NCBI GenBank assembly: GCA_050575255.1
Contig: JBNZDD010013683.1
Location: 771,877 to 835,876 of the forward strand
Length of the DNA stretch: 64,000 nucleotides
Direction: 5' to 3'
DNA from: Harriotta raleighana
Taxonomy: Eukaryota
Part shown: piece by piece, positions 3,373 to 59,968 of the stretch
Layout: every line of letters starts with the position of its first letter
Position numbering within the stretch: position 1 is the stretch's first letter
Made by a program: the position numbers and the translations under genes
Notes under the pieces: generated by a model
The model's database searches: none
Told to the model about the DNA's origin: nothing
The model's input: only the letters and a program-made list of their open reading frames with translations

Positions 3373-3450
3373 AACCCAAAACGTTTGCTCATTTTCCTCT
3401 CTCCATGGATTCTGCCTGACCGTCTGCATGTTCCCAGTGACTTCTGTGAT
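3373..3450 (+). mobile_element. Half copy of the Penelope-like palindromic element
   Basis: acccaaaacgtttgctcattttcctctctccatggattctgcctgacc..tgttcccagtgacttctg matches the right arm at 6978-7045 and 14320-14390. Confidence 0.65.
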
Positions 3451-4084
3451 TATCCTGCATTTATATCGTGCCTTCAAATAGGATAGTGTTAAAGAATTTT
3501 TAAAATTAAGTCTTTACTTGTAGGCCGCTTTAATGCAATTTCTGATAAGAACTGGCTTCCAAATTCAGAGTAAATGTAATTATTTTTCACTGCAGGATGT
3601 TAAATTTTTAAATGAAATGGTTTTTGGATTTTGTCTGAATTTCAGAACCCTAGATGTTTGTCGGAGAAGGCTTTGGTTTGTTCTAATCAGTAGTATATTA
3701 TGATTATTATATAGTATGCTCCTGAAACTAACTAATGCATTTTAATAAAACTAAAAACTAAAACTAATAAGAAACATATCTTGGGGTGATCACAAACAAC
3801 CCTTTTTTAAAATAAAAATATGAAAGCTGTAAACAGGGTGAAAATAGCATTGAAACACCACAGTGTTGTGAAGAACGAGCAAGAGGGAGAACGAGATTGC
3901 TGAGCTGCAGGAAGTTGATAATGTGTCTAGAAGGTAGCATGTCTTTTTATAATGCGATTTATCATCATCTCAGGAGTCAGTCATGGTCAGCACAATGCAC
4001 CTCTTGATAACATTGTAAGTTTACAACAGTGGTTGCCTGTCAATGGAGCTTGACGACAACTGTTTAGCAAAGAGCATTAGGCAT

Positions 4085-5537: not shown

Positions 5538-6823
5538 ACAGTAATAGCTGCTTAAGGTATTTTCTAATGATATCATAAAACTTAGGTCACCCGACTCCAG
5601 GAATGAATTGGACAAGTTTCTGAGTAATGTGGACGCTGTTTTTAGTTTTAATTTCTTTGGAATTATGACATTTATTTGGCCTTTATTTCATTCCGATTTC
5701 CAGCAATCGTTTTGACTTCAGTAGTGGCCGACGTCATAATTGGTCAACTTTCAGATGGTAAGGTCGAGAATGAGGTCACTATCAGCGTGCTTCGTGCAGA
5801 CAGCACCTAGTGCATTGCAGGAAGTGATGTCCAGGACGATCTTACAATCTTACAAAGTCAGCCATATTTATGTGTAGAAAGAAAGTTTAAAAGACTAGGA
5901 ATTTCTTCTCCTTGTTTTGGGCAAAATCGGAAAACCCAACAGTCTTTTGAACCGGTTAGAATTGGAAGCCAGCGAGGCTGCATATACATGCGCCTGCAAT
6001 TCAATCTTCAAGTTCAAAATACATCTTCAATGACTCTGTCACGATCAGGGAGTTGGGCCGCCGTTTTCTCTTTACATTTGCACAGCTCAGAAAAGAAATA
6101 GCCGAATGGTGCTTGTTCCCTCTTGGGTGCTTCTGTTAACACTGCATGTCCGAAGCCCACTTGCACCATAGGAGATAGTCTTTGTCTTTTTCTTGTTACT
6201 GCGTGACACTGGTGCTAATGGGGAAAACGGAACAAAAAACACTTTTGCTGCAATAATGTGCAATGTTTCTTTTGCATCTTCACTAAAAAGAATTAAGGCA
6301 ACGATGTGTGGTGCTGAGGGAGTGAAATTCCACCCATGAAGTACTCCCAGGATTTTGCAATAACTTTTCCCTGACAGGTATACAGAGCACATCGCCAATC
6401 TTTGTAAGTGAAAGCATGCTTTTCCCAAGTGTGAGTTATGACAGTGTTTTCCATGAGTGAAATAGCAGCTGGAACATTGTGACTCAGGAGATTTTCTGTT
6501 TAATCTGTGGAAATTCAGCTCCTGGCAAAATCAGGGGGGGCATTTTAGGAGCCCTGCATATTGATGCCATTTACTCAAGATTATATTTATATACATATAA
6601 ATTTCAGATGTGTTGGAATATTAACTTTGTTTCTGTTCAATAATGTACTGAAAGGATTCATAGTCAAACTTCTATTGGTTTGACCAATAACAGTAAGTGC
6701 TTTAGTGAATATACTGAAAAGGGAATTGACTATATATTTTGTGCATGAAACGCAGCAGGCAATTGCGCACAGCAGTGACCCACAAACAATCGTGGATTGA
6801 GTGACCAAGATTTTTGAACTAAA

Positions 6824-7066
6824 AACAAACTCAAAATACTGCAGATGCTGAAATCTGAAACAAAAACAGACGTTGCTGGGAATACTCAGCAGGTCAGGCA
6901 GCATCAATGGAGAAAGGAAAAGTGAGTCAGTGTTTCGGGGTCCACAACTCCAAGTGAGTTCTGACGAAGGGTCATGGACCCAAAACATTGACTCACTTTT
7001 CTTTTCCCCATAGATGCTGCCTGATCTCCTGAGTGTTCCCAGTGATTGAGGTTTTTTTGCTGTTGG
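6824..7066. mobile_element. Palindromic Penelope-like element (PLE)-derived insertion
   Basis: Arms 6876-6944 and 6975-7042 are reverse complements (about 9 differences in 69 nt) around ctgacgaagggtcatggaccc; inverted 5'-truncated pseudo-LTR layout typical of PLE derivatives. Confidence 0.8.
6952..6998 (+). ncRNA. Minimal type I hammerhead ribozyme motif (this copy likely inactivated by CpG decay)
   Basis: Stem I AAGUGAGUU(6952-60)/GACUCACUU(6990-98); core CUGACGA(6961-67); stem II GGGUC-AUG-GACCC; then AAAAC-AUU where GAAAC-GUU is expected. The opposite arm keeps gaccccGAAAc. Confidence 0.7.
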
Positions 7067-7714
7067 TTTTTCTTTGAAGGGAAAGTGATCCGCCAGTCGA
7101 CCAACAACTGGTTTCCTTCTTATTGCTAGGTAAACAGAGATGTGCGGAGTTGGGAAAGTTGCCCAGGTTTCTGCCCACCTGGGTATTGAACCTGAGTCCT
7201 CTTGCAAGGTGAGTGTGTTAACCACTACGCTGTGGGAATCCACTTTAGCCTCAGTGTTGCAGAGTTTATTAGTGACAATTGCTCTGATAGTATGCTGAGC
7301 TCCTGGTGGCTCCCTTTAAACTCCTAGAAAAGTATTTAGACATTTCTGCTGCAGATACCAGAGATTCAGACAATACTGCTGTCACAACACAGGTGTAAGA
7401 ACTGTAATCACTTGAAAAGGTGGGTCCACAAAAACTGAGAAGAATTCATTACATTTTACTCGTAAAATAAACAAATGAGATCAGCGGATGAGCCTGCAAT
7501 AGGAATTCCAGGTTTAGTTCAATGTCACAGATGCAATTTGTAAATTAATTCCCAAGCTTCACCACAGTTTTTTGCAATGGGGACATGCTTTCCTTCGGTA
7601 CATACAGACAGTAATTCAAGTCTGTGTCAGGAGGGTTGAACTTTCTTCGTTAGGCCCCTGAATTTTTCTGGACTGGTCTGCAAAGTGATTGAAGCCCTTA
7701 GCAAACACTGACCT

Positions 7715-7995: not shown

Positions 7996-8911
7996 TTGAT
8001 CCTTATGATTTGCACAAACATTGCTCGCTCACACCTAGCCAAGTAGCTGCAGGCAGCCTTAAGTTTCATTATCTAATCCATTTTGTAAGAGAATACAGGG
8101 CTTCACAATTCAGTGCAGCTGACTGAATTCCTACTTCGGAGAGCGGTTTCCTTATTTTGTGTTCCCCATTCTTACTGCTCTCCTTTGCTTGATATATTTG
8201 TTATCAATTACTCTAGGAGCTGGTGATTTGTGCAGCAAGTTACTAACAAAAAACTTTAGATGAGCTAGAACAGAGATCTTGAGGCCTGGAAGAGCTGGAT
8301 TGTTTGCAATTTGCTTTGAATCCTTCCCACCTCTCCACTTGTCAAAATGTATTCATTGAAAGAGGAAGTTCTTCATCTTTTTTAAGCACCAAGAATTGCT
8401 TTGCCCTCCTGGTAAAAGACATCTCACAGTGGGGTTTCAAGATGTCATGAATCAGCTATTTCCCACAATATGATGTACATGCACTGTGTGTTCTTTTTCC
8501 TTTACACTTTGATTCAGTTATACTGTATTTCTGTCCATCATTTCGCGGAAACAGATCAAACATGCCAAACACATCCAAACACAGCCATTTGGATTGTCTA
8601 CAAAATAGGTGCCTACGTGTGTGTGCCTCTTAGACTAAGACCTAAGACATTGGGAACTGTCTGACTTGATTAATAATTTGTATGGCTTCCTTCATTTTAG
8701 TACCAGAAAGTCATGAGAGACTACATGTATGAGTGTGTTTGTGGGAGGGGTGATATTCCATACTTTTCACACTTCNGATGTGTGTGTGTATGAGTGTGTT
8801 TGTGGGAGGGGTGATATTCCATACTTTTCACACTTCAACAGGTCACAAGTGGTCACAACTGGTCAATGTGAAGCAGATCATTTATTTATTGAGCCATTTC
8901 ATCTTGTGGAA

Positions 8912-9188
8912 CCTGTAGCTCAGTGGATAGAGCACTCACCTTACAAATGTGAGACCTGTGTTCGAATCCAGGCAGCTCAGGATGAAACGTTGGGTGAGTT
9001 TCTCTACTCCACACACCTAATAATAATCCCAGTGGGACACTATTGTGCACAATTGGTTGTGCATTTCACCCACAAATGTACAGTCAATTAGCTTTACAGT
9101 ATATTCTATGAAGCGCTTTGAGACATCTAGAAGATGTGAACAAGCAAGGATTAATCAAATGCAAGAATTATTATTTATTTTATTATTA
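8912..9188 (+). mobile_element. tRNA-derived SINE, near full length
   Basis: A box ctgtagctcagtggatagagc, B box gttcgaatcc, family body and tail aatgcaagaattattattt. Confidence 0.88.
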
Positions 9189-14224: not shown

Positions 14225-14400
14225 AAAAACAAGACGCAAAACACTGGAATCTGAAACTAAAACAGAACTTGCTGAGAACACACAGAACTGACGAAGGGTT
14301 CTGATGAAGGGTCATTAGAACTAAAAGGTTGACTCAATTTCCTTTCTCCATTGAGGCTGCCTGACCTGCTGAGTGTTCCCAGTGACTTCTGTTTTTGATT
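14225..14400. mobile_element. Second copy of the palindromic PLE-derived element
   Basis: ggaatctgaaactaaaacagaacttgctgagaacac..ctgacgaagggttctgatgaagggtcattagaactaaaaggttgactcaatttcctttctccattgaggctgcctgacctgctgagtgttcccag. Confidence 0.8.
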
Positions 14401-14749
14401 CACTGTCATACGCCAGATGTTAGAGCTTTGTATTGATAAAGAGTTGTGTTGCAGCTCTCTCACTGCAATAGACACCATGACTAAACACCCTCATGTCCAG
14501 AAACCTTCAAATACAGCAAAAAGACTGTACTTTGCACAACATAATTGGCTTCCAGCAGAAACAAATTGCCTTAATTGTTGTTTTCAGCCTGCAGCAAGTG
14601 CTATGTGCCTCTTACACCTCTGGGGTGAAATCTTATTTCCTGTTGTGAATGGACAGATTTTCTATACAGTTCAAAACCCAATCAAAACCCAGTCAGTTTC
14701 CAGCCGGGAAGAACCTTTCCTCCCCCATTAGATTCTAAGTACTCACCGT

Positions 14750-14862: not shown

Positions 14863-15554
14863 ACTCCAGTTGTTGTGTGCGGTATCCTTGATATAATGTT
14901 CCATTGAAATGGATTGATTTATAACATGGAAGTATAGAATTTCGGAGCTGACCAAGTTCAGAGGTTCTCATGCTAGAAAGTTGACTGCCAGGTCATCAAT
15001 CTACCGGTGAAGTCAATTTCCATTGGTTACCCATGTGTAGGAGGTGATATCAGTGGCACATTCCTGGCCACTTGTGCAATATGCAAGAAGTGACTAGCAA
15101 AGACACTTTAACCGGCCCCATGCCCCCCACCCACCCCCAAAATTGGACACTTTTTTGCACTTCACTTACCTTGAAGATAATGTACCTGGTCACTGCCAGC
15201 CATCTCACAGGAATGATTTGTATTCATTTTTACAATGTAGGAATCAGAACGCTGTGACGTTCTAAATTGCTACCATTGGCACAAGTGAAGAGATTTTCTT
15301 TTCCAACTCATTTAGTTCCTAGGGTAACCATCTTTAGATATTATNGACCTGGCCATCTCACAGGAATGATTTGTATTCATTTTTACAATGTAGGAATCAG
15401 AACGCTGTGACGTTCTAAATTGCTACCATTGGCACAAGTGAAGAGATTTTCTTTTCCAACTCATTTAGTTCCTAGGGTAACCATCTTTAGATATTATATT
15501 ATGATGCAATATTTTGAACCATTCTTCTTGATATCAAATAAATTCTTTTACTAG

Positions 15555-20885: not shown

Positions 20886-21185
20886 AATAATAATAATACT
20901 CCTTCGCATTTGATATAGCACTTTTCATATCTTCTAGACGTCTCAAAACACTTCACAGAATATACTGTAAAGTAAATTGACTATATTTGTGGGTGAAACC
21001 GCACAGCAGTGTGCCACAAACAGTCATGGATTGAGTGACCAAATTCTCATTGTTCTTTTTTTTGATGGATTATTATTAGATGTGTGGAATAAGGAAACTT
21101 GCCCAAAGTTTTGCCCTGCCTGGATTCGAACACAGATCTCAAGCTTGTAAGGCGAATGCTCTGACCACTGAGTTACAGAACTCCA
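20886..21185 (-). mobile_element. tRNA-derived SINE, near full length
   Basis: Reverse head ctgtaactcagtggtcagagcattcgccttacaagcttgagatctgtgttcgaatccagg; family body and (ATT)n tail. Confidence 0.9.
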
Positions 21186-23239
21186 CAGATAAAGAGACTG
21201 TGAGCCAGAGGAGTAGAGGCAGGAAGTTTGGGAGGTTAGAATTGTAGGGTTGAAGACATGGGTTGAAGATAGTGCAGAGTGGTCGGGAACACGTAGCAAG
21301 CTTGTGGTAGCTTGTCACATTAGTCAGAAAGCAAAATGGGTAGCGTTTCACCATTGTCTTATAAATCTGAACATCAGATGAGAATTTTATACTTTGCTAA
21401 GGTCAGAGTTGATAGAATGATCTCTGAATTGGTCAAAGATCAGCACATTTACGTTCCATTCCCATATGTATTCCAGAAGAGGAGAACTCCTTGATGGATT
21501 ATTTTATCTTCGGGAGAGCACGGTCTTTAGAAGGAGGCTTTTTTAGCGGATAGCATATTATTTTGTTTGAGAAATCTCTGGGGTCTCCCAGAGATGCACC
21601 TTTTGTCCTTTTATATCTCAATGCAATAGAAAAATCCACAGATCTGTCAGCAGATATTCATGCAACGGAAGATGGATGCACTGAACATTTTTTGGCTTTT
21701 AGGTCAGCTTCTTTAGAGACTTCTGAAAAACCGAGTGTTCTTGCAGAGATTTGTTAATCATTTCATTGCCGACGTGCCAACAGTGGGTTCAGATGAACTT
21801 TGCATTTCAGGTGCACTTCCCTCGGTACTGAGTACAAAATTGTGTGTGGGGGGTGGAGGGGGGGGAGGGGAGATAGGAGGCAGAAACCCCTAGTAACTTT
21901 AGATACAAATGAATGTGCTCTTGAAAGAGATGTCCAAATTAATCCCACTCCCCCGTGCTCTCTCCATAGCCTTGCAAGTTTGTACTCCCTGATAGTTAGG
22001 TAATTTCCCATGACGGCCAAAGAACATGGCTCTTCTCTTTATTGCACTGCCAAAAATTGTCGAAGTGCATTTTATATCTGATAAGGTTAAATGCAAACTA
22101 ATTCATGCATGGATTGCAAAGAAAGACAGAGACATTTCCTTAAACTGCTGGACCATTAAATAAATCTAGTTGCTAACATTCCCATCATACTCTAACTTTC
22201 AGTAAAAAAAACTTGTGTAACCTTGTTGTTTGAAGATATGCAATGTCATTTTAGAAAGTTTTGCACACGTAGCGTTTGGAGAGGATAAATCGCATTCAGT
22301 AGGTTTCTGTTGAAGCAGCTGAGACTTACAGCAAAGTGTTCATTTGCTCATCATCTCTCCTTAACCTGGTAGACACCTTCTTTGAATTCCTTGATGTCTC
22401 AGTTGCTCAGCTTACTGCATATGTCACAAAACATAAAATGGATGCATATCAGAAAATGAAGAAGACAGAGCTGTAATTCCACTATAGCATTGAATTTGCT
22501 TTTGTAAAGTGAATTTAAACAATAAAACAACCCACATTTTCCCTCCCTTTCAAAACGTTTACAAATGTATTTTGAGCTATATTTATATGGTGTCCTTATT
22601 AAGAAAATGTAGTGCATTGTCCACAAACTATACTGTCAATTCAATTTGCAGCACACCATTGTGAAGTGCTTTGCGACGTCTCAACAATGTGTTAAGTGCT
22701 ATATCAAATGCAAGCCTCATTATTATTGTTGTTGTCATCATTATTATGCCAATCTTGGAATGTGCATTTTTTAGGCTTAAATTCTTTTCTGACACAGATT
22801 GCACTTACACTATCTACTCTGGGAGATGGGACCCAGCAGGACATGGGACAATTTCCAACTCCTTTTCTGAACATTGCACTCGAGGCCCCTTTATGTTCAG
22901 AGCACTTAAACTTCCAATTCAGCCCTAGTCTGAACGGCAAACAAACATGCGCAGGGCAACAGCAAACCCATTAGTGATAGCTTTTCTTGTCCATCCAGAA
23001 ACATGATCAATTCTTTTTCAACAAACCCCTGCAGATGGCCAGAGAAAATTCCTGAGCTCCATTGAGAGACTTGCGAGGAAATCAAACACCAATACTGCAG
23101 GGGAACATGAGAAACTGTTAACCCTTGCTCTTAACAGAGAATAAATACACAGGAGCCACAGTCATTCCTCGTTGCGAACAAATCTCTTCTCTCCATTGTT
23201 ATTAGGGAATGTAAGCAGAAACCTACTTGTAGTTCAATG

Positions 23240-25552: not shown

Positions 25553-27901
25553 CAAACCCATAGCCCAATTTCAGAGCTTCCTTGTGTGGGACTCAGTGTA
25601 CTTGATTCTTGTAAAAGCTCTGATATTGTGGATGAGTGATGTCACACCTATCCATATAGGGGGAAAAGACAAGTAAATGGGTGTGAACCGATTGCTCATT
25701 CAAAGCCCCAGCATAGTCATGATACAGTACATTGAAGGACTTTCTTCTGTCCTGTAAAGGTCTACTGGTGTTGTTGGGATTGTAATTGTTTGCTAATCTC
25801 GTGTTAATCCACTCAAATACCATATTTGACTGCAATTGCTTGTGAAGCGCTTGGAGACGTTTCAATGCCAAATCCAATGCAAGATTTATTCGAATCAAGT
25901 TGGCAAATCCTGAGGCACAGAACTCCGGGAACACAAACTGCACGGAGTAAAAAGAGCACAGTAACACAATAAGAAACTGGAGGCTGCAGTCTGCTTGTGA
26001 TCTACTGGGACCTTCTCTCTCATTTCACTATGATACAAAGCACAAATTATTCAAATTCACAGCTGATCGCTATGCACCACAAAAGACCTGATGTGGAAAG
26101 CAAGTTTTGGACGGCGAGCAATTGAATGACAAATTTATTCCACACACATGAAGGAGACCTGCACAAATCACTTACCTCTGTTCTGGTCGTGACTTATTTT
26201 GTTCTCCTCAGATACAGAATAATTCAGTACCATCAAGTATCCTCTATGTACTTGCATGGGCTGCCAGCCAGCCTGCCCATTATATTAAAAAAAACACAAG
26301 CAAGTTTCCTTTTAATAGTGAAGATGGGATTCTACAAAGTTTGTACCACACGGTGACTTAATAGTTTATGACTGGGCTGTGAGCATGCTTGTCCATTAAA
26401 TAGCTCTGGGAAGCCACACACACATGCTTTCTGCTGCAGATTATGTGATTATACTTATGAATGCTGCAAGCACAGCTGCTGTGTACCTTCACATAAATAT
26501 ATTAACAGATAATATAACAAGGAAAGTGTCGCCTTGCTTTCCATGCTACAGTAACTTTTGAACATTGTAATAAAGTTATCCAGTACCATGATGGAGCAGT
26601 GGAAAGACTTAACCACATCTTCTGCCTCCTGTGATTTATGAAGCAACATGCACTTCACTTAAGAACTTATCATACAGAGTGAAATCCTGATAACTCGTCT
26701 CTCCAAGGTGAAAATGTTCAGTGACGNCAAACCCATAGCCCAATTTCAGAGCTTCCTTGTGTGGGACTCAGTGTACTTGATTCTTGTAAAAGCTCTGATA
26801 TTGTGGATGAGTGATGTCACACCTATCCATATAGGGGGAAAAGACAAGTAAATGGGTGTGAACCGATTGCTCATTCAAAGCCCCAGCATAGTCATGATAC
26901 AGTACATTGAAGGACTTTCTTCTGTCCTGTAAAGGTCTACTGGTGTTGTTGGGATTGTAATTGTTTGCTAATCTCGTGTTAATCCACTCAAATCGCATAT
27001 TTGACTGCAATTGCTTGTGAAGCGCTTGGAGACGTTTCAATGCCAAATCCAATGCAAGATTTATTCGAATCAAGTTGGCAAATCCTGAGGCACAGAACTC
27101 CGGGAACACAAACTGCACGGAGTAAAAAGAGCACAGTAACACAATAAGAAACTGGAGGCTGCAGTCTGCTTGTGATCTACTGGGACCTTCTCTCTCATTT
27201 CACTATGATACAAAGCACAAATTATTCAAATTCACAGCTGATCGCTATGCACCACAAAAGACCTGATGTGGAAAGCAAGTTTTGGACGGCGAGCAATTGA
27301 ATGACAAATTTATTCCACACACATGAAGGAGACCTGCACAAATCACTTACCTCTGTTCTGGTCGTGACTTATTTTGTTCTCCTCAGATACAGAATAATTC
27401 AGTACCATCAAGTATCCTCTATGTACTTGCATGGGCTGCCAGCCAGCCTGCCCATTATATTAAAAAAAACACAAGCAAGTTTCCTTTTAATAGTGAAGAT
27501 GGGATTCTACAAAGTTTGTACCACACGGTGACTTAATAGTTTATGACTGGGCTGTGAGCATGCTTGTCCATTAAATAGCTCTGGGAAGCCACACACACAT
27601 GCTTTCTGCTGCAGATTATGTGATTATACTTATGAATGCTGCAAGCACAGCTGCTGTGTACCTTCACATAAATATATTAACAGATAATATAACAAGGAAA
27701 GTGTCGCCTTGCTTTCCATGCTACAGTAACTTTTGAACATTGTAATAAAGTTATCCAGTACCATGATGGAGCAGTGGAAAGACTTAACCACATCTTCTGC
27801 CTCCTGTGATTTATGAAGCAACATGCACTTCACTTAAGAACTTATCATACAGAGTGAAATCCTGATAACTCGTCTCTCCAAGGTGAAAATGTTCAGTGAC
27901 G
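25553..27901 (+). repeat. 1174-bp tandem duplication separated by a single N (probable assembly artefact)
   Basis: 25553-26726 matches 26728-27901; the only difference I saw is aatACcat vs aatCGcat; N at 26727. Confidence 0.95.
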
Positions 27902-35480: not shown

Positions 35481-35585
35481 CAGAGACAGGCTGATACCTT
35501 AGCCACAAAGACCTTGCTAGGATTCAAACCCACAATGTCCTGCTTATTAGGCAGCTACTTTATCCAAATGGTATAATATTAACAT

Positions 35586-35955
35586 GATAATAATCCTTAC
35601 ATTTGATATAGTACTTTTCGCATCCTTTAGACGTCTTAATGCGCTTCACAGAATGTACGACAAAGTGAATTGACTTTATATTTGTGGGAGAAAAGCGACA
35701 GCTGATTGCACACAGTAGTGTCCCACAAACAGTCATGAATTGAGTGACCAAATTATTATTATTTTTATTATGTTTTGGGGGTATCCCCAGAAAGATGATC
35801 CACGAATCAACTAACAACCGGATTCCTACTTACTGTTAGGTAAACAGAGGCATGTGGTGTAAGAAAATCTTCCCAACATTTTGCCCTGCCTGGAAACGAA
35901 CCCAGATCTCTAGGTTTGTTTGCAAGGTGAGTGCTCTGACCACTGAGCTAGAGGA
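35586..35955 (-). mobile_element. tRNA-derived SINE, full length (long variant)
   Basis: Tail at 35586-35650; head tgcaaggtgagtgctctgaccactgagctag at 35921-35951. Confidence 0.88.
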
Positions 35956-37629
35956 CTCTAGCTATAATCTGCTTTCAGTTAGCAACTAACAAAAGGTATC
36001 TAATTTAGTAAACCTAATTAATCACTAAATTGCTGAGATTTGTTGCAATTGATACTCTACTCTGGTTTATGACAGTGGTTATTTTACCGTCAATTTTACA
36101 ACATCATCACAGAAATAGAAGAAACAACAAAGCACAGAGTGAGGTGTGATTTTTATGTAAAGAATATTAACTATTCTGATCAATTAAAGTAAGCAAATAT
36201 CCTCTTCTCAGCTAGTGAATGGAGAAAATGGTTTGCATGAAAGCACAAGTGAAATGATTTTGTTGAGAATCGTGTTTCCGTTCATCCTGGTGTAATAATT
36301 TAATGTTCACTGTTTCAGATATAGAGAAATAAAGGAAAAATGAGGATAATATGTACAAAACTTCAAGAGCTGAACGCAAGAGTCTGCTAATTGGATGAAA
36401 ATTCAACTTTATGACGCTAGAAGCACAGAACTACCAACATAAGAGGAATCACGCAATACTTAAATTTAACGCCAGAAGCATACAATGTTTTGGGCTATAA
36501 ATCTCTACATTTCTGACGTGTTTCACCAGCCAAGTTACATTTAACTGTCTTCTCACTGTTCTGTTTAACCAACCTCCCTGTGTCATGATCAGAGGCTTAA
36601 ACCTCCTGTTCTGATTTTGCATAACTAACCATTGGCATTTATTTATTCTAAACAATATACAGTATATGAAAGGTAATATACAAATGTAATTTTGTTGTTG
36701 ATGTTGCTTCCTTCCAACTTGTACTCTCCTGAAAATTTTTAATAAGGGCCTTAATGCCAGCTCTTGTTTTGTGTAGAGTATTATTTTTAGATGCCACATA
36801 GTGAGTAAATTTATATTTTGAATCTCTCAAATCAAATCCAGTTCCGTTGGAACACTGCAGCACTTACGCAAAAGTTAGGGTCAACTAAACGGTTGGGACA
36901 ATTAAGAAACAAAATACAGTACATCTAGTTTTACAAGTCTGTTACATAATGTTAATTTCAATGATGTTTCTCAATTGAATGACTAGTTTGTTTTTTGCTA
37001 GACAACATTTACCATTAACTGCAATATCAATCAACTACAATTAATTACTTATTTCAAGGTACAATCGATGCACATTCATTGTGCATTTTTGTTGTGGGAG
37101 GAATGGGGCTGATAACTTAAACCTTTAATAGACAGCAGCAATGGCAATGGATAACACAATACAAATGGTGTCTGTGTGCAGTTTGATTGGCGAATATAGC
37201 AATATCACTTGTATGACAAAATCAAATCTAATTTTACATTCAATTATATTCGGGAAATGGTTTAAGGATTTTAACTCACTTAACACAAAATATTCATGGT
37301 GGTGGAGAGGGGCAAAGCCTGTACTAGTGATCGATAGAGGCAGACTCTTTGAAAAACTCCATCACAGCTCTGTGTGGATTTGTGAGCTTTCAAACGTGTT
37401 TTCTATTAGATGTAACAGTCAGTCACCATTATAAACCAGAGTGCCAAAAATTTGCATAGTATTTGGCACCTCTGAAATCATGCAGGATCACAAGACTAAA
37501 AGCATTCAAGAGTTATCTTGTCTCATACAAAATGTCATTTGACACTGACTTGAAAATCATATGTATACATTTGGCATGCAGGGGGATTTATTGATAGACT
37601 GGGTTGCAAATATTGATAGGAAAAAAAAA

Positions 37630-41627: not shown

Positions 41628-41735
41628 AATGAAGGGTCAGATCAGTCACTGAAACGTATCCTTCACTTTCACATGCGTATTTTTCTTGATTTGTTGGGAT
41701 TTTCCAGCAGTTAATTTTTTTTACTTCAAATTTCC
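41628..41735 (+). mobile_element. Decayed copy of PLE-derived element
   Basis: atgaagggtc..ctgaaacgta..ttgttgggattttccagca..ttcaaatttccag resembles the right arm. Confidence 0.5.
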
Positions 41736-44317
41736 AGGGTATTCATTTTATCATTGAGTTATTAACGTCTCCCGACGTGAAAGGCGCTCTATAAATGTAA
41801 TTTTGTTGTTGTATTATTATCAGCTCTCTGTGTGCATGGCAGAATTTTGTAAAGAACAAAGGCGTTTGTAGTCCCATTTATTTTTTATCCATTTCTAAGA
41901 TAGAAACACAAGTTAGGGCTTCTACAGGTTCGTGAGTCCTAACTTTACGCATGAACTGATTTCAGAATTGGATGATGCTTTAGAGATATCTGGAGATAAA
42001 TGTATTACAACTTACAATGGATCTGCACACCCGCTGATGTATGGGATAGATTAGTGAACAACTTACATTCATCATAGTAAGGAGGACATTTAGTGTCTGG
42101 CAGTCCAGTGATGCACAGCGTGTGCCCATATTGACTGGTACTTAGTTAGGGGAGGGAATTATTGCAACAATTCTCATCGTCTGTGCTTCAGAGAGGAGTT
42201 GGACCTTTGAGTTTGATTGGGAAAATCAATTTGCAAAGAAGTCTCTAGCATGGAATGACTCTCAAATTCTTTTTAAAATGTTAGTAATGAACTCTCCAGC
42301 GGACTGAAATTTGACTTGTCTAATGTAGTTGAATGCACATCTCAAGCAGTGGAATCTGAGACACATTAAATGTGTGCTTTACTTAATATGCTGTGATATA
42401 GACCACCGTTAGCACACATTAATGTAAAGTAACTCAGGCAGGGTAATAGTTGGGCACTACCATAGGTCTCAGCACCTCTGAGATAGGGTGAGGAAAATGA
42501 GCCTCTTCTGAGGCCTAGAATTTCACTTAATCTTAACCTGTGAGACCATGTCTAAAATCATGCAGAGTAGCGGAAAATTCTTAATCTTGTAACGTGGTTC
42601 TCTTTTAAAAGCTAAGTTTGGGCTAAATATGAGTTTGAATGTANCTCTTTTAAAACCTAAGTTTGGGCTAAATATGAGTTTGAATGTAAGCGCTTAGAGA
42701 GAACTCTTTCAAGGAAATGCCAGATGGTGATTAACAAGCAAACATAGTGTTAGAAGTTAAAAGTGGACACATGGAATTTGAATTCCAAAGCTTTTCATTA
42801 ACTATACCATTTATTAATGGTTTCACAGTGTGGATTTTGAAAACAATATTGTTGCATTCAGGAAAGTGCAGGACACAAAGATGTAAAATTGCTGTAGTCA
42901 GTTATGGTCAGAGTACCTCCAGATGTTCAGAAATGTGTTGCAAACAGTATGTAAAGCGGATAATGAAGCTATCTCCTATATTTGAGATTATTAGGTTTTT
43001 AAGAAGCCCTAATAGAGCTAAGGTCACAGTTCCACAAAATAAAAAGAAATACTGCAGGTCTCCTAAAATAATAGGGTTACATATTAAATGAAACCTTATC
43101 ATTCAAAATGACATTAAATTTAACGCGGATCAGAGNTTTAAGAAGCCCTAATAGAGCTAAGGTCACAGTTCAACAAAATAAAAACTATGGGAAGAAATAC
43201 TGCAGGTCTCCTAAAATAATAGGGTTACATATAAAATGAAACCTTATCATTCAAAATGACATTAAATTTAACGCGGATCAGAGGACATGATTTTCAAATG
43301 TGGAAAACACATGGATGTATATTAAAAAACAATGAAGGATAAAGATTGTGCTTAGTTCTCCTGGTCTGTCATCACCAGATTCTTTCACAATTGGGCTGTG
43401 CATTTCCATTGAAAGATTGACACAGCTTAAACCAAGGGTAAGGTAGAATATGTGTTTTCAGGGATAAGGATTTTCAGATATAGAAATGTACGGGAATACA
43501 ACCAAATAAAAATAAGAATGTGTTGCCAGTTCCATGCTATGCTGAGGATTATATGTGATGAAGTGAGATTGCACTGTATCTCTTTCATTCACAAAGCACA
43601 GAGAGCGGCGAGTACACGGGTAAGGCACAAACCAAATTCTATCTTTTATATACAGTATATGGAAATGAGAGCATGCGGAGCATGGAACGATTTTGAGGAA
43701 AGTGAGAATTGAAAAATTGTCAGGAAGAATTCACATTTGTGTTGCGAAAGTGATACACAGCCTGATTCATGAGTGAAGTGAGTGCAGACACCAGAGATTG
43801 TCTCATTAATTTGCAGGGGTTCCTGCATTTCCAAATACCAAAAGCAGTCAAAGAAGTCAATTTTGTAAGTAGTGCTTAACAATTGAATGGAAGCTGCCTG
43901 CCTTGGCACCCACACACAAATTCCAGACACTGTTAGCAATGCACTTTCCATTCTTTCCCAGACAAACCTCTGTACTGCCCACCACCCATCAAAGAAACAC
44001 AGATGTTACTCATGCCTGGCTCAGTCGACATTCATACGCTTTTAAATTAACATTTCAGAATCGGGATGAGATATCAACATCGCAATTTCAGGCAGGTGTG
44101 GTCAATCTCTCTGGGCTGTCTGACTACACCATATTTTTAATGTTTATTTGAGCAGCATTCGTCTCCACCTGCCAACACCCTGTGGGTGAAACTGAAAAAT
44201 ATCACATCAAAGAAGGGAATCAGTGCCCAGGTTAATATTTCAAGGTATCTTTAAGGTTTGACAATGACAGAACAGAATCAACAGAACATTAGGTAGTCAT
44301 TTCCCCACACCCATGTG

Positions 44318-44776: not shown

Positions 44777-45003
44777 TGTGGGTCATAAGGAAATAATAAC
44801 ATCAGAGAGACAGGCAAGCAACCTAACATTGACGCAAAGCAGACTTTGGTTTAACATTTCAGGTTTGTGGAGCTGCTGTGATCCAGAAAATGAGACACAA
44901 CACAAAGCATTGGGCTTCATTAAATGAGCTATTGAATAAGAAATTGTTTGGCAATTTGTAATATTATCCCATTGATGGGATTATGACCAAAAAAAAATGA
45001 ATG
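44777..45003 (+). repeat. Left arm of ~227-bp inverted duplication
   Basis: Reverse complement of 48280-48505 with two substitutions and a 1-nt homopolymer indel. Confidence 0.95.
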
Positions 45004-48000
45004 TGACCAAAAAATAGCACCTGTTTTGGGATTGAAGGCACGGCCATCGATGGAGTAAAGGAGGGCATGAGAAACAAACAGGAGGCCAGAACCAGTCAAG
45101 CGAAGGCAGCTGGTATAAGCATATCAGATAGCTTCACAGAATATGTTGTAAAGTGTCGTCGATGTGTACTTGCTCACCCACAAAAGCCACAGTCACGGAA
45201 CCTTACAGAAAATCTTGTGAAGTGCTTTGGGATATTCTCCTAACAAGAAAGGCTGTATGTCAAATGCAACGCTTATTATTATTATTACTTTTTAGGCAAA
45301 GATGACAGCTAATTGTTAGCCAAGATACTGGGAGAAATACCTCTTTTTGGATAGTATCATGGAATCTTTAACATCTGCCTGAAAGGTTTGACAAGCCACT
45401 TTCTGTGACTGCCTTTCATTATGTAACATTTGATGGAGGGAGCAGATTTTTGATCAACTTGTCTGTAGACATAAATGGGAAAGGAAGAGAATTCGTTGAA
45501 GAGACAGCCATAATTCCAATATCGGGCATTAACTAGGACTGAATGGAATGTAAGTGCAATAGAACATAAATGACAAAAACTCCAGAACTGAGTTATATCA
45601 TTGATTCCCAGTTAATTATGCTGCAAGCAAAGTGACATATTTGAAGCAGTAGAGGGATTAGAAGGGGAAGCTTAATTTATATTTCCTGCTCCCAAATCTA
45701 ACTCTAAGCCAGGAGAGCTGAGTAGAATTCTACACAAGTGCAACTAAGTGCAAGCACTGAATTCTATTACTGGATGTTTTTTCTGATGTTAATTCAGAGG
45801 AGCTTGTGTATTAAAAATAGCGTGAGAGGGTTAGTTGAACTGCTCGAGCACTAAATGGATACAGTTTGTGGCGTTGGGTGATTAATGATAATTCATTGTT
45901 ATTCCTAAACAAATTGATTCACATCTGAGTTGCTTATACTTTTCTGGTACAAATTGACATGTTGCCAAAATCCTCCTGGTGTTTCTATCGGGTGATCCCA
46001 TAGAGACCCTGCCCACACATCCCTTCCATGCCCCCACCAGAGCATTGCATTAAATATGTTTTTACCCTGCTTTGTGAAACTGAGAGTTTGAGAGATTGGA
46101 AAATGATTCTTCGGAGGGGCGATGAAGGTGTGAATTTCCTTAACATAGTGCAAAATCCTGCTGCCTCTCACATCCTCCCCTCTTGCCAATATTGCGTTCA
46201 ACACAGTAATTCTGGTTCTTAATTCCAAACTTGGAAAATATGCTGATCATGTCCGATTGAAGGAAAAAAACCACAACACATGTTTTAATGACAGGATACG
46301 TCAGACCTTCAATCAGACCTTCAGGCAGAGCATAGAGTCACTGTACTTGACCATTTGGAATCAGCTAGGGTTTCTCTCAAGGGACATTGTGGAAAAGTGA
46401 ATCCATGCAGTGAGTTAATTAATACCTGTTAGTCAATGGTTGTGCAATAGATTGTATCCAGCAACATCTCTCATTACTGTCGATATGTAGAATCTTCATA
46501 TAATTTTTAAATGGTAGCCGAAAGCGATTCTCTGAATAGGTCAGATAAGAAGATGAACAGAAAGAGAAAAAAACTCACTTCTCTGAAGAACTCTGCTCCA
46601 ATTTGTTTTATATCAGGAAAGACTGTGGAACAGTAATTAGAAGGTGTTGCTTAGGTTCTCTGCTTGCTTTCATCTCCTGAAAAGATTAATGGGCATCCCT
46701 GGGACACCAGCTGCTTTCTATTTATCAAAAGAAGCTGAAAGCTGGCAAAGAGCCAGTCGGCCTGAGAGATGAGGGGCGCTCAAAGCTCAAAATCAGCTAC
46801 CTCGCTGGAACCGTACAAAGGAAAGATCACAATGCACCATCATTCCAACCGTACTCTCCGCAAATCCTTTTCGAGAACGACCTTTGCAGTTGTACTGCGG
46901 AGACACCGTTACTTTTGACTCCAATGTCTCTCAGGTGCAAACCTCTATGCAGTGCTGGAAAAAAAAATGCATCCAGCAGAGTGAGAAGCTATTTCATGTT
47001 TCACTTTTGTTTTGCTCACTCAGTGGCATGGTAGAACTATGATTGAATTACGTATTATAATAAAGTACAGTAACCTTGTTCCACCTTGTCATTTGCCTTC
47101 CAAGGCTGCGACTACTAGCTCAGCCCAGTTTCACATCACTGCTAAATTTCAGTAGGTGAAAAAAAATCATCCTGTATGTCTAATTTTATTCAACAGTAAA
47201 GATGTAAGTTGAAAGTGAAGTTAAAGTTTCTGTAGAATAGATTATAAAAATGCATGGTTGGTGCCCATTTTATTTTATGAATAAGGAAGACCTCAGAATT
47301 GGTGAAATTAGAATACAGTAATAAGAATTTTATAAAGATCTCTCTTATATTTTATGTATGGGTGTGTGTGTGTGTGGATTGTGTCTTATCCATTCCATCA
47401 TGTCTACTGAACTGCCTCACCCCTTTTCTTCCTACACAACTTGGTGTGATCTCATAAATGAAGGATTTTTTATTACTATTACTCTGTTCACAGTTGACTG
47501 ACAGTGCTCGAATGGATACATAGCTTGATGATTCCTTTCAGAAATGATAAATTTGACAGACCACTCTTCCTCTGAAGGGTCAGCGAGTTTACCCAGTGAG
47601 TGTGTGAACCATTGGGACCATGAAGGTTCCTGTTTCCAGTTAGCTGATGTAGAAAAGGGAAGATCAGCCAGGTTTCACCTTGCCGAGATGCTGGAAATGT
47701 GCCTTTGAGTGTGTCTCTTATGCATAGGATCAGCTTTAGCTGTGATGTTCTCACGCACACTTAACGAACCTGCTGATAGTCAAAAGCGCAAAAGTTCACA
47801 ATTGAGTGAACTAGCACATGGTGTTCATGTAACCATACCCCCAGTAAAATAAAATGAGAAATTAAATGCTTTGGGGAGCAAAGGAGAGAAGAGTGAAGAG
47901 AGAAAAAAAAACCTCCTATAATAAATGTGAATCTGCTGCCAAACCTGTCACTGAACACTGTGCGGAAACAAACACCTCATCTTGTAAGTTCCAGAAATAC

Positions 48001-48279
48001 AATCTTACAAGTGATATTAGTCCTGCAAATAACCAGGACACAGCAGTTCTCTGCGATCTGTTTAAGAGAGAGTAGAAGGTATGCATGCTTACGGTACGAA
48101 CATTAGTGGAGAATGATTTATCAAAACTATTGGGAAGATATGAAATCTGCACTAGCTTCAATAACAAATACATTTTCTCTTCCCTTTCTAAAGCTGAATT
48201 AAACACTCCCCAGCCCTGCCAGGCTGGTGACCTTGTGTATTGAAAATAAAGAGCGCTTTGGTTGGTGGCTGCTGCTCAT

Positions 48280-48505
48280 CATTCATTTTTTTTGGTCACA
48301 ATCCCATCAATGGGATAATATTACAAATTGCCAAACAATTTCTTATTCACTAGCTCATTTAATGAAGCCCAATGCTTTGTGTTGTGTCTCATTTTCTGGA
48401 TCACAGCAGCTCCACAAACCTGAAATGTTAAACCAAAGTCTGCTTTGCGTCAATGTTAGGTTGCTTGCCTGTCTCTCTGATGTTATTATTTCCTTATGAC
48501 CCACA
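48280..48505 (-). repeat. Right arm of ~227-bp inverted duplication
   Basis: See 44777-45003. Confidence 0.95.
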
Positions 48506-57727: not shown

Positions 57728-59606
57728 TTCTTCCAAATGCTGCAGGTTTGCAGGCCACTGCTTGTAATATAGAGAATTCTGACAATATCAGCAGCAAACA
57801 AAATCCTAGCCAGGGATGGATGCAGCCTGATAATTAATTGCTCTATTAAAAGTGATTCACAGATAGCAAGAATGTCAAAAGTGTCAGAGTTGTCTCAGTT
57901 GGATATGGTTCCAGTCTTACCATTCACAAAGTGGGAATTATTTAAGTCAAGTGGGTGGTAACATATATTTTTTGCAATTCCGAAATGTCTGACTTATCTT
58001 CTTTCCCAAAACTGTGACCACAAAGTTTGTAAATAATGGTAAATAATTGAACAGGACCCATATCAGGAGGAAATAGTAGAATTTCCACAAATAGAATTGT
58101 AATTCAGTGTCCTACTGTCTCTTTCAGGCAAACAACAACAACAAAATTACATTTATAGAGTGTCTTTTACGTCAGGAGTATTCACCACCTAATGTCGTAT
58201 CTTTTTGATTTTGTTTGTACCTCTCTGCTTATGAGTTTAGGATCCTCTTTAGCATTTGCATGTGGCCAAATTCTACCTGGGTCCAAATTTACGTTATTCA
58301 TAATGTAGAATTTTATAGGTACCAGAATTTGGCAAATTGTTAAATTCATTCTCAACTTTGGAGTAATTTTTCTGTAGTTTGTAAAAGAAATTCACATGGC
58401 TGGTTTCAAAATGAAACCATTTCGATCCCAGTTTTGTGCTAACCCAATCTTTTTTTTCGAAGGGATTATATGACCTTTCCTCTCTAATGTCATAATCCTT
58501 TTTTGTAGGGTTGAATTTGGAAAAGAACATTGTTTCGATATTAGTGATACAATTACCTGCTATTTAGTAGGTCATTCTAAACAAAATTTGATGAAGTCTT
58601 CAGATAAAATATGTGAATGTACACCTGCCGTAGCATATGAATCTTCTGAACGATCCCATTACTAAAATAAATAACAGTGCAATGCAGTTAGGAAATCAAT
58701 ATGAATTGATTTCTCATTTGACGTTAAACGTGTTCTCTATTGTGTTCATAAAAAAAAGAAAACTATTTTATTGTAAACTAATTACCTTCTCAAATGTGCA
58801 ACTCATACTGTAATAAAATGGCTCCTTATGATAAGACTTGCTGCTTAAAAGGCTCATTTCATCTCTGGGATCTGTATTAATACAGACAGATGGGCTGAAA
58901 CTCTCCTTTCTCTGCAAGGGTCCAGCTAGAAATGAATTTGGGCATTCTCAATTCAGTTCCTACTGTGCACAGGTCCACAGTATGAAACTCTTCACAATTC
59001 AAACCAAGTTAGAAGTACAGTAATATGAAATCTCATTTGGTGAGCGAGAATGACGTGGGAAATCATACATTCCTCACTGGAGCTGTCGGGGTTCTTGTGA
59101 GTTTAAGACCAAGACACACTTTACAGTAATGGAGGGAGTGGTTGCCTTTTGCACCTGGCCCGTCTACAGCAAAATAACAAATAACAAGATTACATTTGTA
59201 CAGCGCCTGTCAGGTCCACTGCTGTCATCAAAATCCTACAACTAATTCCATTCCTTAGAACCGAAATATGTAACTTTACGAACACAAAACAAACCAACGA
59301 ATATCCTGGTTCAATTCCAACATTTAGAACATGATGAGCCAGTTCAGTTCCAAGGAGACCCCACTTACATCCCAACAAGGATGAGAGTCACCNTTGGAGC
59401 CAGTTCAGTTCCAAGGAGACCCCACTTACATCCCAACAAGGATGAGAGTCACCAGTTTGTCATTTGTCAACTGAGGGCTCAGACCTGTGGGATTTCTCAG
59501 TTTGGAATTCTCAATTCATTTGGAACATCTTAAACATGGTGATTGGTTTCCCCATTTGTCGGAGTCCTGGCTGACCCCAAAAATTGTTTAATTGTAGGTA
59601 AGGAGT

Positions 59607-59968
59607 TGTGTAGCTCAGCAGTTAAGGCACTCGCCTCGCAAGCGAGAGATCTGGATTTGTTTCCCGGAGGAGAAAAACATTGGGCAAGTTTCCTTACTCC
59701 ACTTGCCTCTGTTTATCTAGCAATAAGTAGGAACAAGGTTGTTAATTGTTTGGCAGATCGCTTTCCCGTGGGTAATAATAATTCCTTAAAAAAAATTGGT
59801 CACTTCAATTCGCGACTCACGTCTCAGTCTCTCACGTTTGTGAGAGATTGTTTATCAGCAACATTTTGCCCACTAACTATACATTACTGTACTTTACAGT
59901 ATACTCTGCAAAGCGCTTTGAGACGTCACAAAGACATGATCAAGTTCTATATCAAAAGTAAGGATTAC
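59607..59968 (+). mobile_element. tRNA-derived SINE, full length (long variant)
   Basis: tgtagctcagcagttaaggcactcgcctcgcaagcgagagatctgg head; tail gcgctttgagacgtc..atcaaaagtaaggatta. Confidence 0.85.

Follow-up and report, generated by a model that had tools for sequence, protein, structure and literature searches.

The palindrome at positions 6824–7066 of the analysed window (the whole stretch of 64,000 nucleotides from Harriotta raleighana) is very probably the end repeat, with its ribozyme, of an abundant Penelope-like element (PLE), present as two head-to-head copies that were likely formed by one insertion event and are likely inactive today. With comparable confidence, it is regarded as the shortest form of an ordinary 5'-truncated head-to-head PLE insertion, and not as a self-propagating mini-element equipped with a switch. 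The locus is real and was rightly recognised as PLE-derived in the initial annotation, but it is an ordinary decayed insertion remnant.

Structure of the palindrome and its surroundings

The features discussed below are listed with their window coordinates. For the whole family, a numbering was used in which C3 of the CUGA core is 0, which corresponds to window position 6961.

6657..6822, minus strand: 3' part of an interrupted tRNA-headed SINE-like repeat, the insertion target, delimited by alignment to uninterrupted copies
6826..6946, minus strand: inverted arm, PLE end repeat from about +8/+10 to +131, without the CUGA core
6826..6860, minus strand: optional 30–40 nt PLE 'tail', present here on the inverted arm only
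6947..6956, plus strand: junction, the five bases 6952–6956 of which are the reverse complement of 6994–6998
6952..6998, plus strand: minimal type I hammerhead motif, decayed; the cut site would follow 6989
6957..7059, plus strand: sense arm, PLE end repeat from −4 to about +99, tail-less
7077..7243, minus strand: 5' part (tRNA-like head) of the interrupted SINE-like repeat
3373..3451, plus strand: third copy, a single arm from +16 to +94, without the core
14243..14402, plus strand: second copy, a sense arm from −3 to +100 (14298–14402) preceded by a decayed inverted piece; core damaged
41629..41740, plus strand: remote, much older relative, with GAAACGT kept at 41651 and without the CUGA core and stem II

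All hammerhead parts described earlier were found in type I order on the plus strand. Stem I is formed by 6952–6960 with 6990–6998 (9 pairs, the innermost being U-G) and is followed by the CUGACGA core at 6961–6967, an unpaired A at 6968, stem II (6969–6973 with 6977–6981, 5 pairs) and AAAAC-AUU at 6982–6989. A loose hammerhead descriptor gave three matches in the 64 kb, of which this motif alone has stems (9 and 5 bp); an Rfam scan of the window with E up to 1 returned no match to a hammerhead model. The opposite arm indeed keeps GAAAC, as had been noted, but it carries ACU in place of GUU and ends before the CUGA core. Compared with the subfamily majority, the inverted arm (6826..6946) differs at 10 of 119 aligned bases and the sense arm (6957..7059) at 12 of 97. 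The palindrome arms proper, 6876–6939 and 6979–7042, are 88% complementary, and the predicted fold of the 243-nt element reaches −129.7 kcal/mol (z = −13.1), which none of 200 shuffles equalled. The 49-nt motif alone folds only modestly better than its shuffles (z = −2.7, 4/200).

The element interrupts a SINE-like repeat, uninterrupted copies of which lie at 20890–21200, 35560–35960 and 59560–59960; weak tRNA matches were obtained in sister copies at 8909–8979 and 21111–21182. The claim of at least four copies in 64 kb held for three clear ones (6824, 14243–14402 and 3373–3451), but not for the sequence at 41629–41740, which is no more than distantly related (7.6 bits, E 0.02 within the window). 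The GAAACGT reported at 41651 is present and belongs to this relative.

The very stable hairpin could also point to co-option of the locus by the host, either for a hairpin RNA (microRNA-like or double-stranded) or for a conditional ribozyme. The Rfam mir-3202 model matches both strands at 6903–7015, and a contig of a related organism covers 6946–7150 without gaps and with 16 differences, which suggests that the insertion is shared with that organism. Against co-option, the difference from the relative's contig is about 8% here, as in the flanks (15/222 and 27/267; flanking contigs 7–10%), both arms lie 8–12% from the family, and CpG sites including G12 have been lost. Moreover, among the 63 stop-free frames of at least 90 aa in the window, the 20 scanned, of the longest type, matched no Pfam family, so that no host gene was identified. 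Co-option is therefore considered very unlikely. The mir-3202 identity itself was rejected, since about 51 bits (50.9) stand against a gathering score of 90 and the match reflects the hairpin; some letter-level likeness was seen in the purine-rich arm. A stop-free frame of 242 codons spans the element (6587–7315, minus strand), has no Pfam match and is probably due to chance. Elsewhere in the window, near-perfect local duplications were seen in 25553–27027, 15199–15497 and 44777–48505 (300 nt at 99%, 146 nt at 100%), together with a 220-nt inverted pair at 99% among the same regions; these are recent events or assembly artefacts.

Size of the family and its Penelope-like source

A search of the genome with the window element returned 5701 candidates, 40 of which were scored. 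The minimal type I hammerhead was confirmed at the level of the family, where it occurs with an intact GAAAC-GUU: the intact 34-nt core has 369 exact matches in the genome and the reversed control has none, while a CpG-decayed core variant has 238. A sample chosen independently of sequence was composed of 65 stretches (695 kb), namely the window with 16 neighbouring and 48 distant 10-kb pieces. The family profile detected 20 arms at 17 loci in this sample and nothing in the reversed control; the 14 loci in the 631 kb outside the window give a rough estimate of 24,000 loci genome-wide. For the structural statistics, 120 loci were picked by core (the first 90 of the 369 and the first 30 of the 238 matches), which left 115 distinct copies once duplicates and one contig-end copy had been dropped. 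Among these, 32 were inverted, 20 ran clearly into the PLE body and 63 were scored as single. The set of inverted copies used below comprises 61 distinct copies, 28 of them picked with the query element.

Loci picked on the intact core often continue upstream into a common body, and the RT plus GIY-YIG partner whose search had been proposed was found there, in broken long copies. In L045, L063 and L036, the upstream frame, although broken, contains RT motifs (VKGVAMGT, RYID), a CxxxxCxxC linker (CHCRRCNTC in L045 and CHRRRCKIC in L063) and a GIY-YIG end (VVYC..LYIGE) located about 270 nt upstream of the core. Ten homologues of the RT piece, with 44–58% identity, carry RVT_1 and PF26215, two of them also GIY-YIG, and the RVT_1/PF26215/GIY-YIG domain content was confirmed for homologues P0003 and P0005. 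The GIY-YIG piece of the family scored E 0.0013 and 19.5 bits in Pfam, below the cut-off of 22.6; Pfam gave no match for two RT pieces of L120, and a comparison of the RT piece with solved structures gave none at E up to 1. The long copies thus contain the single frame with RT and C-terminal GIY-YIG that belongs to an endonuclease-bearing PLE, broken in every case.

The PLE origin proposed in the initial annotation was borne out by the end repeat, which terminates the RT/GIY-YIG-bearing copies. This hammerhead-bearing repeat occupies the 3' end in 30 long copies, and these end at two fixed points, about +99 and about +131, approximately 35 nt apart. In L326, a piece from +44 to +132 leads into the N-terminal part of the frame, with an ATG near +52 that is in frame with the coding part save for one stop. 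The 5' piece of L326 and the 3' end repeats of the long copies together indicate that the element carries the ribozyme region at both of its ends. The search yielded no intact autonomous copy: every frame read is broken, and the sole near-full copy inspected (L326) has lost its 5' core. By its Zn-finger-like cysteine linker, the element would tentatively fit the Neptune clade; such a motif between RT and endonuclease is described for Neptune and also for Nematis (PMC8557442).

A genome search with the Pfam GIY-YIG model was unsuccessful as a route to the partner: it gave five matches, none like the element, and the partner came from the sequence upstream of intact cores. The matches comprise an exon that is SLX1-like by its motif, a frame resembling bacterial UvrC and an array from another PLE-like family. 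The UvrC-like frame, uninterrupted over more than 650 aa, lies on a 17-kb contig (L031, G000:C12264:9854-13075) that is likely from a contaminant or symbiont. In the array, three near-identical tandem GIY-YIG pieces (L066-L067, G000:C13463:86595-94081) belong to a PLE-like family and have no DNA match to the element. A second PLE family, about 70% identical and with a related end repeat, was seen near the long copies L119, L123, L127, L333 and L334.

Palindromes as probable products of separate insertions

The palindrome had been interpreted as a distinct non-autonomous element. This view was not upheld, as each palindrome looks like a separate PLE insertion product. The 16-nt junctions are different in all 61 inverted copies, and the inner end of the inverted arm ranges in them from −7 to +51. 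The identity of the arms within a copy amounts to 0.918 (n = 57), compared with 0.871 between copies, and a subfamily marker at +50 agrees between the arms in 53 of 56 scorable copies. The tail is located on exactly one arm in 29 of the 33 non-query copies (11 sense, 18 inverted; Fisher p = 2e-5). Direct repeats of at least 8 nt flank 18/61 inverted copies, compared with 5/599 mismatched pairs; at the copy studied here, no target-site duplication was found. The layout of an inverted plus a sense arm also exists in a long form (813 + 1148 nt in L116, about 705 + 1040 nt in L123), and arms of this type, 1–2 kb in total, contain RT and endonuclease sequence. Copies with one fixed structure, junction and ends, as expected of a self-propagating palindrome, did not emerge. 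Arm-to-arm gene conversion and deletions at the hairpin centre could mimic concordant arms and varied junctions, and this is regarded as the weaker alternative.

The rival explanation, in line with the initial annotation, is a non-autonomous palindromic element whose transcripts are inserted anew by the PLE protein and whose inverted arm acts as a brake on the ribozyme. Palindromes are common enough (32/115 core-picked copies) for this idea to be considered, although inverted copies are a minority at that count and single-arm stubs outnumber them. Ten of the 33 query-picked copies have the same G-AGTT or a similar start region, with the tail mostly on the inverted arm, and G occupies −5 in 9 of 16 copies keeping AGTT. 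Mobilisation in trans is known for rotifer pLTRs (PMC3846280), and the hairpin does exclude the ribozyme fold. However, the junctions differ in 61/61 copies, the arms follow the subfamily within each copy, and the tail occurs on either arm. No majority base is specific to one arm, save for one marker near 50:50, and the same architecture recurs at 1–2 kb in copies whose arms include RT and endonuclease sequence. The absence of a recurrent junction, which would speak against such an element, is already largely evident in the 61-copy sample. An independent palindromic element is therefore unlikely.

If the palindromes are insertion products of the PLE, the PLE protein would cut both target strands, and reverse transcription would have two internal start points, lying about 100 and 131 nt past the core. 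With one start site used per strand, two opposed arms could arise from one RNA, with the tail on one of them. Initiation within the mRNA's 5' repeat would let the enzyme run off the RNA end after 105–135 nt and leave stubs. At the present copy, the cDNA end may have snapped back on stem I and copied five bases, which would give the 9-bp stem; self-priming at inverted junctions was proposed earlier (PMC3846280). The anole PLE protein cuts and extends both strands in vitro, has two internal starts bounding the tail, and uses uncut RNA (PMC11167929). The one-arm tail, the subfamily-matched arms and the sharp 5' pile-up described below agree with a scheme in which both strands are primed from a single mRNA by one protein dimer, which runs off the 5' end of that mRNA.

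State of the ribozyme

The motif at this locus has the C3-A9 core, the unpaired base, G10.1-C11.1 and helices I and II. It departs from G12-A13-A14 and from the palindromic 15.2–16.2 (A at 6982 and 6987), both of which are intact in the family. The ribozyme described as complete is thus, at this copy, without G12 and G16.2, also in comparison with the published minimal hammerheads (min-HHR). The proposed CpG decay was confirmed: the two G-to-A changes, at 6982 (G12) and 6987 (G16.2), affect family CpG sites, and in 28 copies not picked by core the CpG sites including G12 are mutated in 22% of cases (48/217), compared with 4.7% elsewhere. Non-CpG core positions show 4 changes in 266, versus 140 in 2949 at other non-CpG positions (p = 0.012). 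The somewhat better-kept core could reflect selection in some copies, though some columns of the reference set vary between subfamilies or lie in homopolymers.

The family does not keep the 9-bp stem I, its commonest length being 4 bp; a stem I that is not conserved across copies had been set beforehand as a refuting result. Among 119 intact motifs, stem I has 4 bp in 56, 6 bp in 8, 8 bp in 1 and 9 bp in none. The five extra pairs at this locus are made by junction bases that are the reverse complement of +33..+37, and they occur in this copy only. In this sample, which is biased by core picking, the 119 motifs are nearly one sequence; a look for compensatory changes in helices I and II showed single transitions and one swap of A-U for G-C in stem II.

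The substitution of G12 by A slows the hammerhead more than 500-fold in the minimal form and about a million-fold in the full-length form (PMC2553840). The change of G16.2 would break the ACGU palindrome needed for the dimer. According to predicted folding energies, the hairpin and the ribozyme fold are mutually exclusive, as had been anticipated: the ribozyme-constrained fold has −103.5 kcal/mol and the hairpin −129.7 kcal/mol, an advantage of 26 kcal/mol for the hairpin. The predicted probability of stem I is about 0, also in growing transcripts ending at 6995–7015. Because of G12A, the lost dimer palindrome and the more stable hairpin, this copy is likely dead, and its hammerhead likely no longer works. 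The suggested regulated off state was not supported, as the folding predictions give the off state alone, with no on state at any tested transcript length, and the inner end of the inverted arm varies from −7 to +51. The hairpin is in all likelihood a by-product of the inversion and not a selected switch.

Relation to known systems

Insertions of endonuclease-bearing PLEs (PMC8557442; PMC3846280) share with the present family the head-to-head inverted 5'-truncated copy, the 30–40 nt tail on one end, the junction palindromes, the first codons inside the repeat and, apparently, the variable target duplications. Unlike in those insertions, most copies here are cut down to the last 105–135 nt, and they number in the tens of thousands. 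The min-HHR of metazoan PLEs (PMC4209133) have in common with the family the type I order, a 4-bp helix I, the unpaired base before helix II, G10.1-C11.1 and the palindromic ACGU replacing helix III. The same source describes opposed min-HHR pairs at distances of 100–700 bp, as well as single motifs, in the thousands, that stem from truncated PLEs. Among the differences, helix II has here 5 bp and a 3-nt loop, compared with 7–8 bp in the Schistosoma motifs (PMC4209133), and H17 is U. The green anole Poseidon element PAc (PMC11167929) resembles the family in its two RT starts, which lie about a tail length apart and 100–150 nt behind the ribozyme, in the cutting and extension of both strands, and in the use of uncut RNA as the main template. 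In contrast to PAc, the family has a Neptune/Nematis-type cysteine linker, and the first ATG in frame is found about 52 nt behind the core instead of at stem II.

Animal non-LTR retrozymes (bioRxiv 10.64898/2026.07.22.740005) are likewise non-coding, PLE-derived and equipped with a type I hammerhead. As they derive from PLE pLTRs and are present in a cartilaginous fish, the stubs could be thought to form such a family, that is, tandem hammerhead repeats giving circular RNAs. Retrozymes, however, are head-to-tail tandem repeats, whereas this locus is a head-to-head insertion remnant and the units at the sampled loci are single or head-to-head. Nor are the starts concentrated at the cut site +29. 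A retrozyme origin is very unlikely.

The locus itself matters little, being one decayed copy among tens of thousands, and insertions of its kind were described between 2013 and 2024. The family statistics do bear on how PLEs form inverted ends and tails.

The 5' ends of the stubs

Among the core-picked copies, 88 of 115 start at most 8 nt upstream of the core, and the other 27 extend at least 14 nt into the body. Starts at the ribozyme head account for 77% of copies, while 6% are predicted from the truncation rate in the body. The ribozyme cut was rejected as the origin of the 5' ends, as only 1/49 and 0/20 arm starts lie within 1–2 nt of +29. A spliced leader was likewise considered as the source of the 9-bp stem, with the cue that the template resembles a branch point, a pyrimidine tract and CAG directly before the TT-core, a layout comparable to that of a Drosophila virilis intron (PMC4209133); it was discarded, as the 88 stubs have no common upstream exon.

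The initiator consensus is YYANWYY, and the template at the pile-up, which reads CC-A-GTTC, fits it. Of 33 stubs keeping AGTT, 22 have the templated C before it, 9 have G, 2 have A and none has T (G versus A/T, p = 1e-4); in a larger, overlapping AGTT set, the counts are 26 for C, 14 for G, 3 for A and 2 for T. An untemplated 5' G has been taken as a mark of the cap in L1 and SVA (PMC4859970). The cap G alone is not an adequate explanation here, as in 10 of 14 cases the G itself has a T before it (p = 7e-4), which is what snap-back on stem I would be expected to give, and the cap reading is therefore not unique.

We tentatively propose, at somewhat less than even confidence, that the stubs are a fossil map of the 5' end of the PLE mRNA. 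Transcription would start at the A four bases before the core, so that the ribozyme would extend from the first capped nucleotide and a 33-nt capped leader would be clipped off; the stubs would be run-off cDNAs of uncut mRNA, with the extra G or TG arising from copying of the cap and snap-back on stem I. Should the pile-up correspond to the start site, the ribozyme would in effect decap the mRNA of its own element. This start-site proposal was not found in the openly accessible literature searched. In Drosophila, the start of Penelope lies 46 nt before an intron, in a different layout (PMC2377424).

Some minor observations were also made on the ends of the copies. The shorter 3' end point falls, within +85 to +101 (window 7045–7062), in a pyrimidine run that directly precedes CAG and resembles a splice acceptor. 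Many stubs scored as single (L178, L181, L202, L245, L286 and others) show a fold-back of 4–8 nt, TCAG-TT-CTGA, at the 5' junction; in 12 of 26 cases, the base after the templated C is T.
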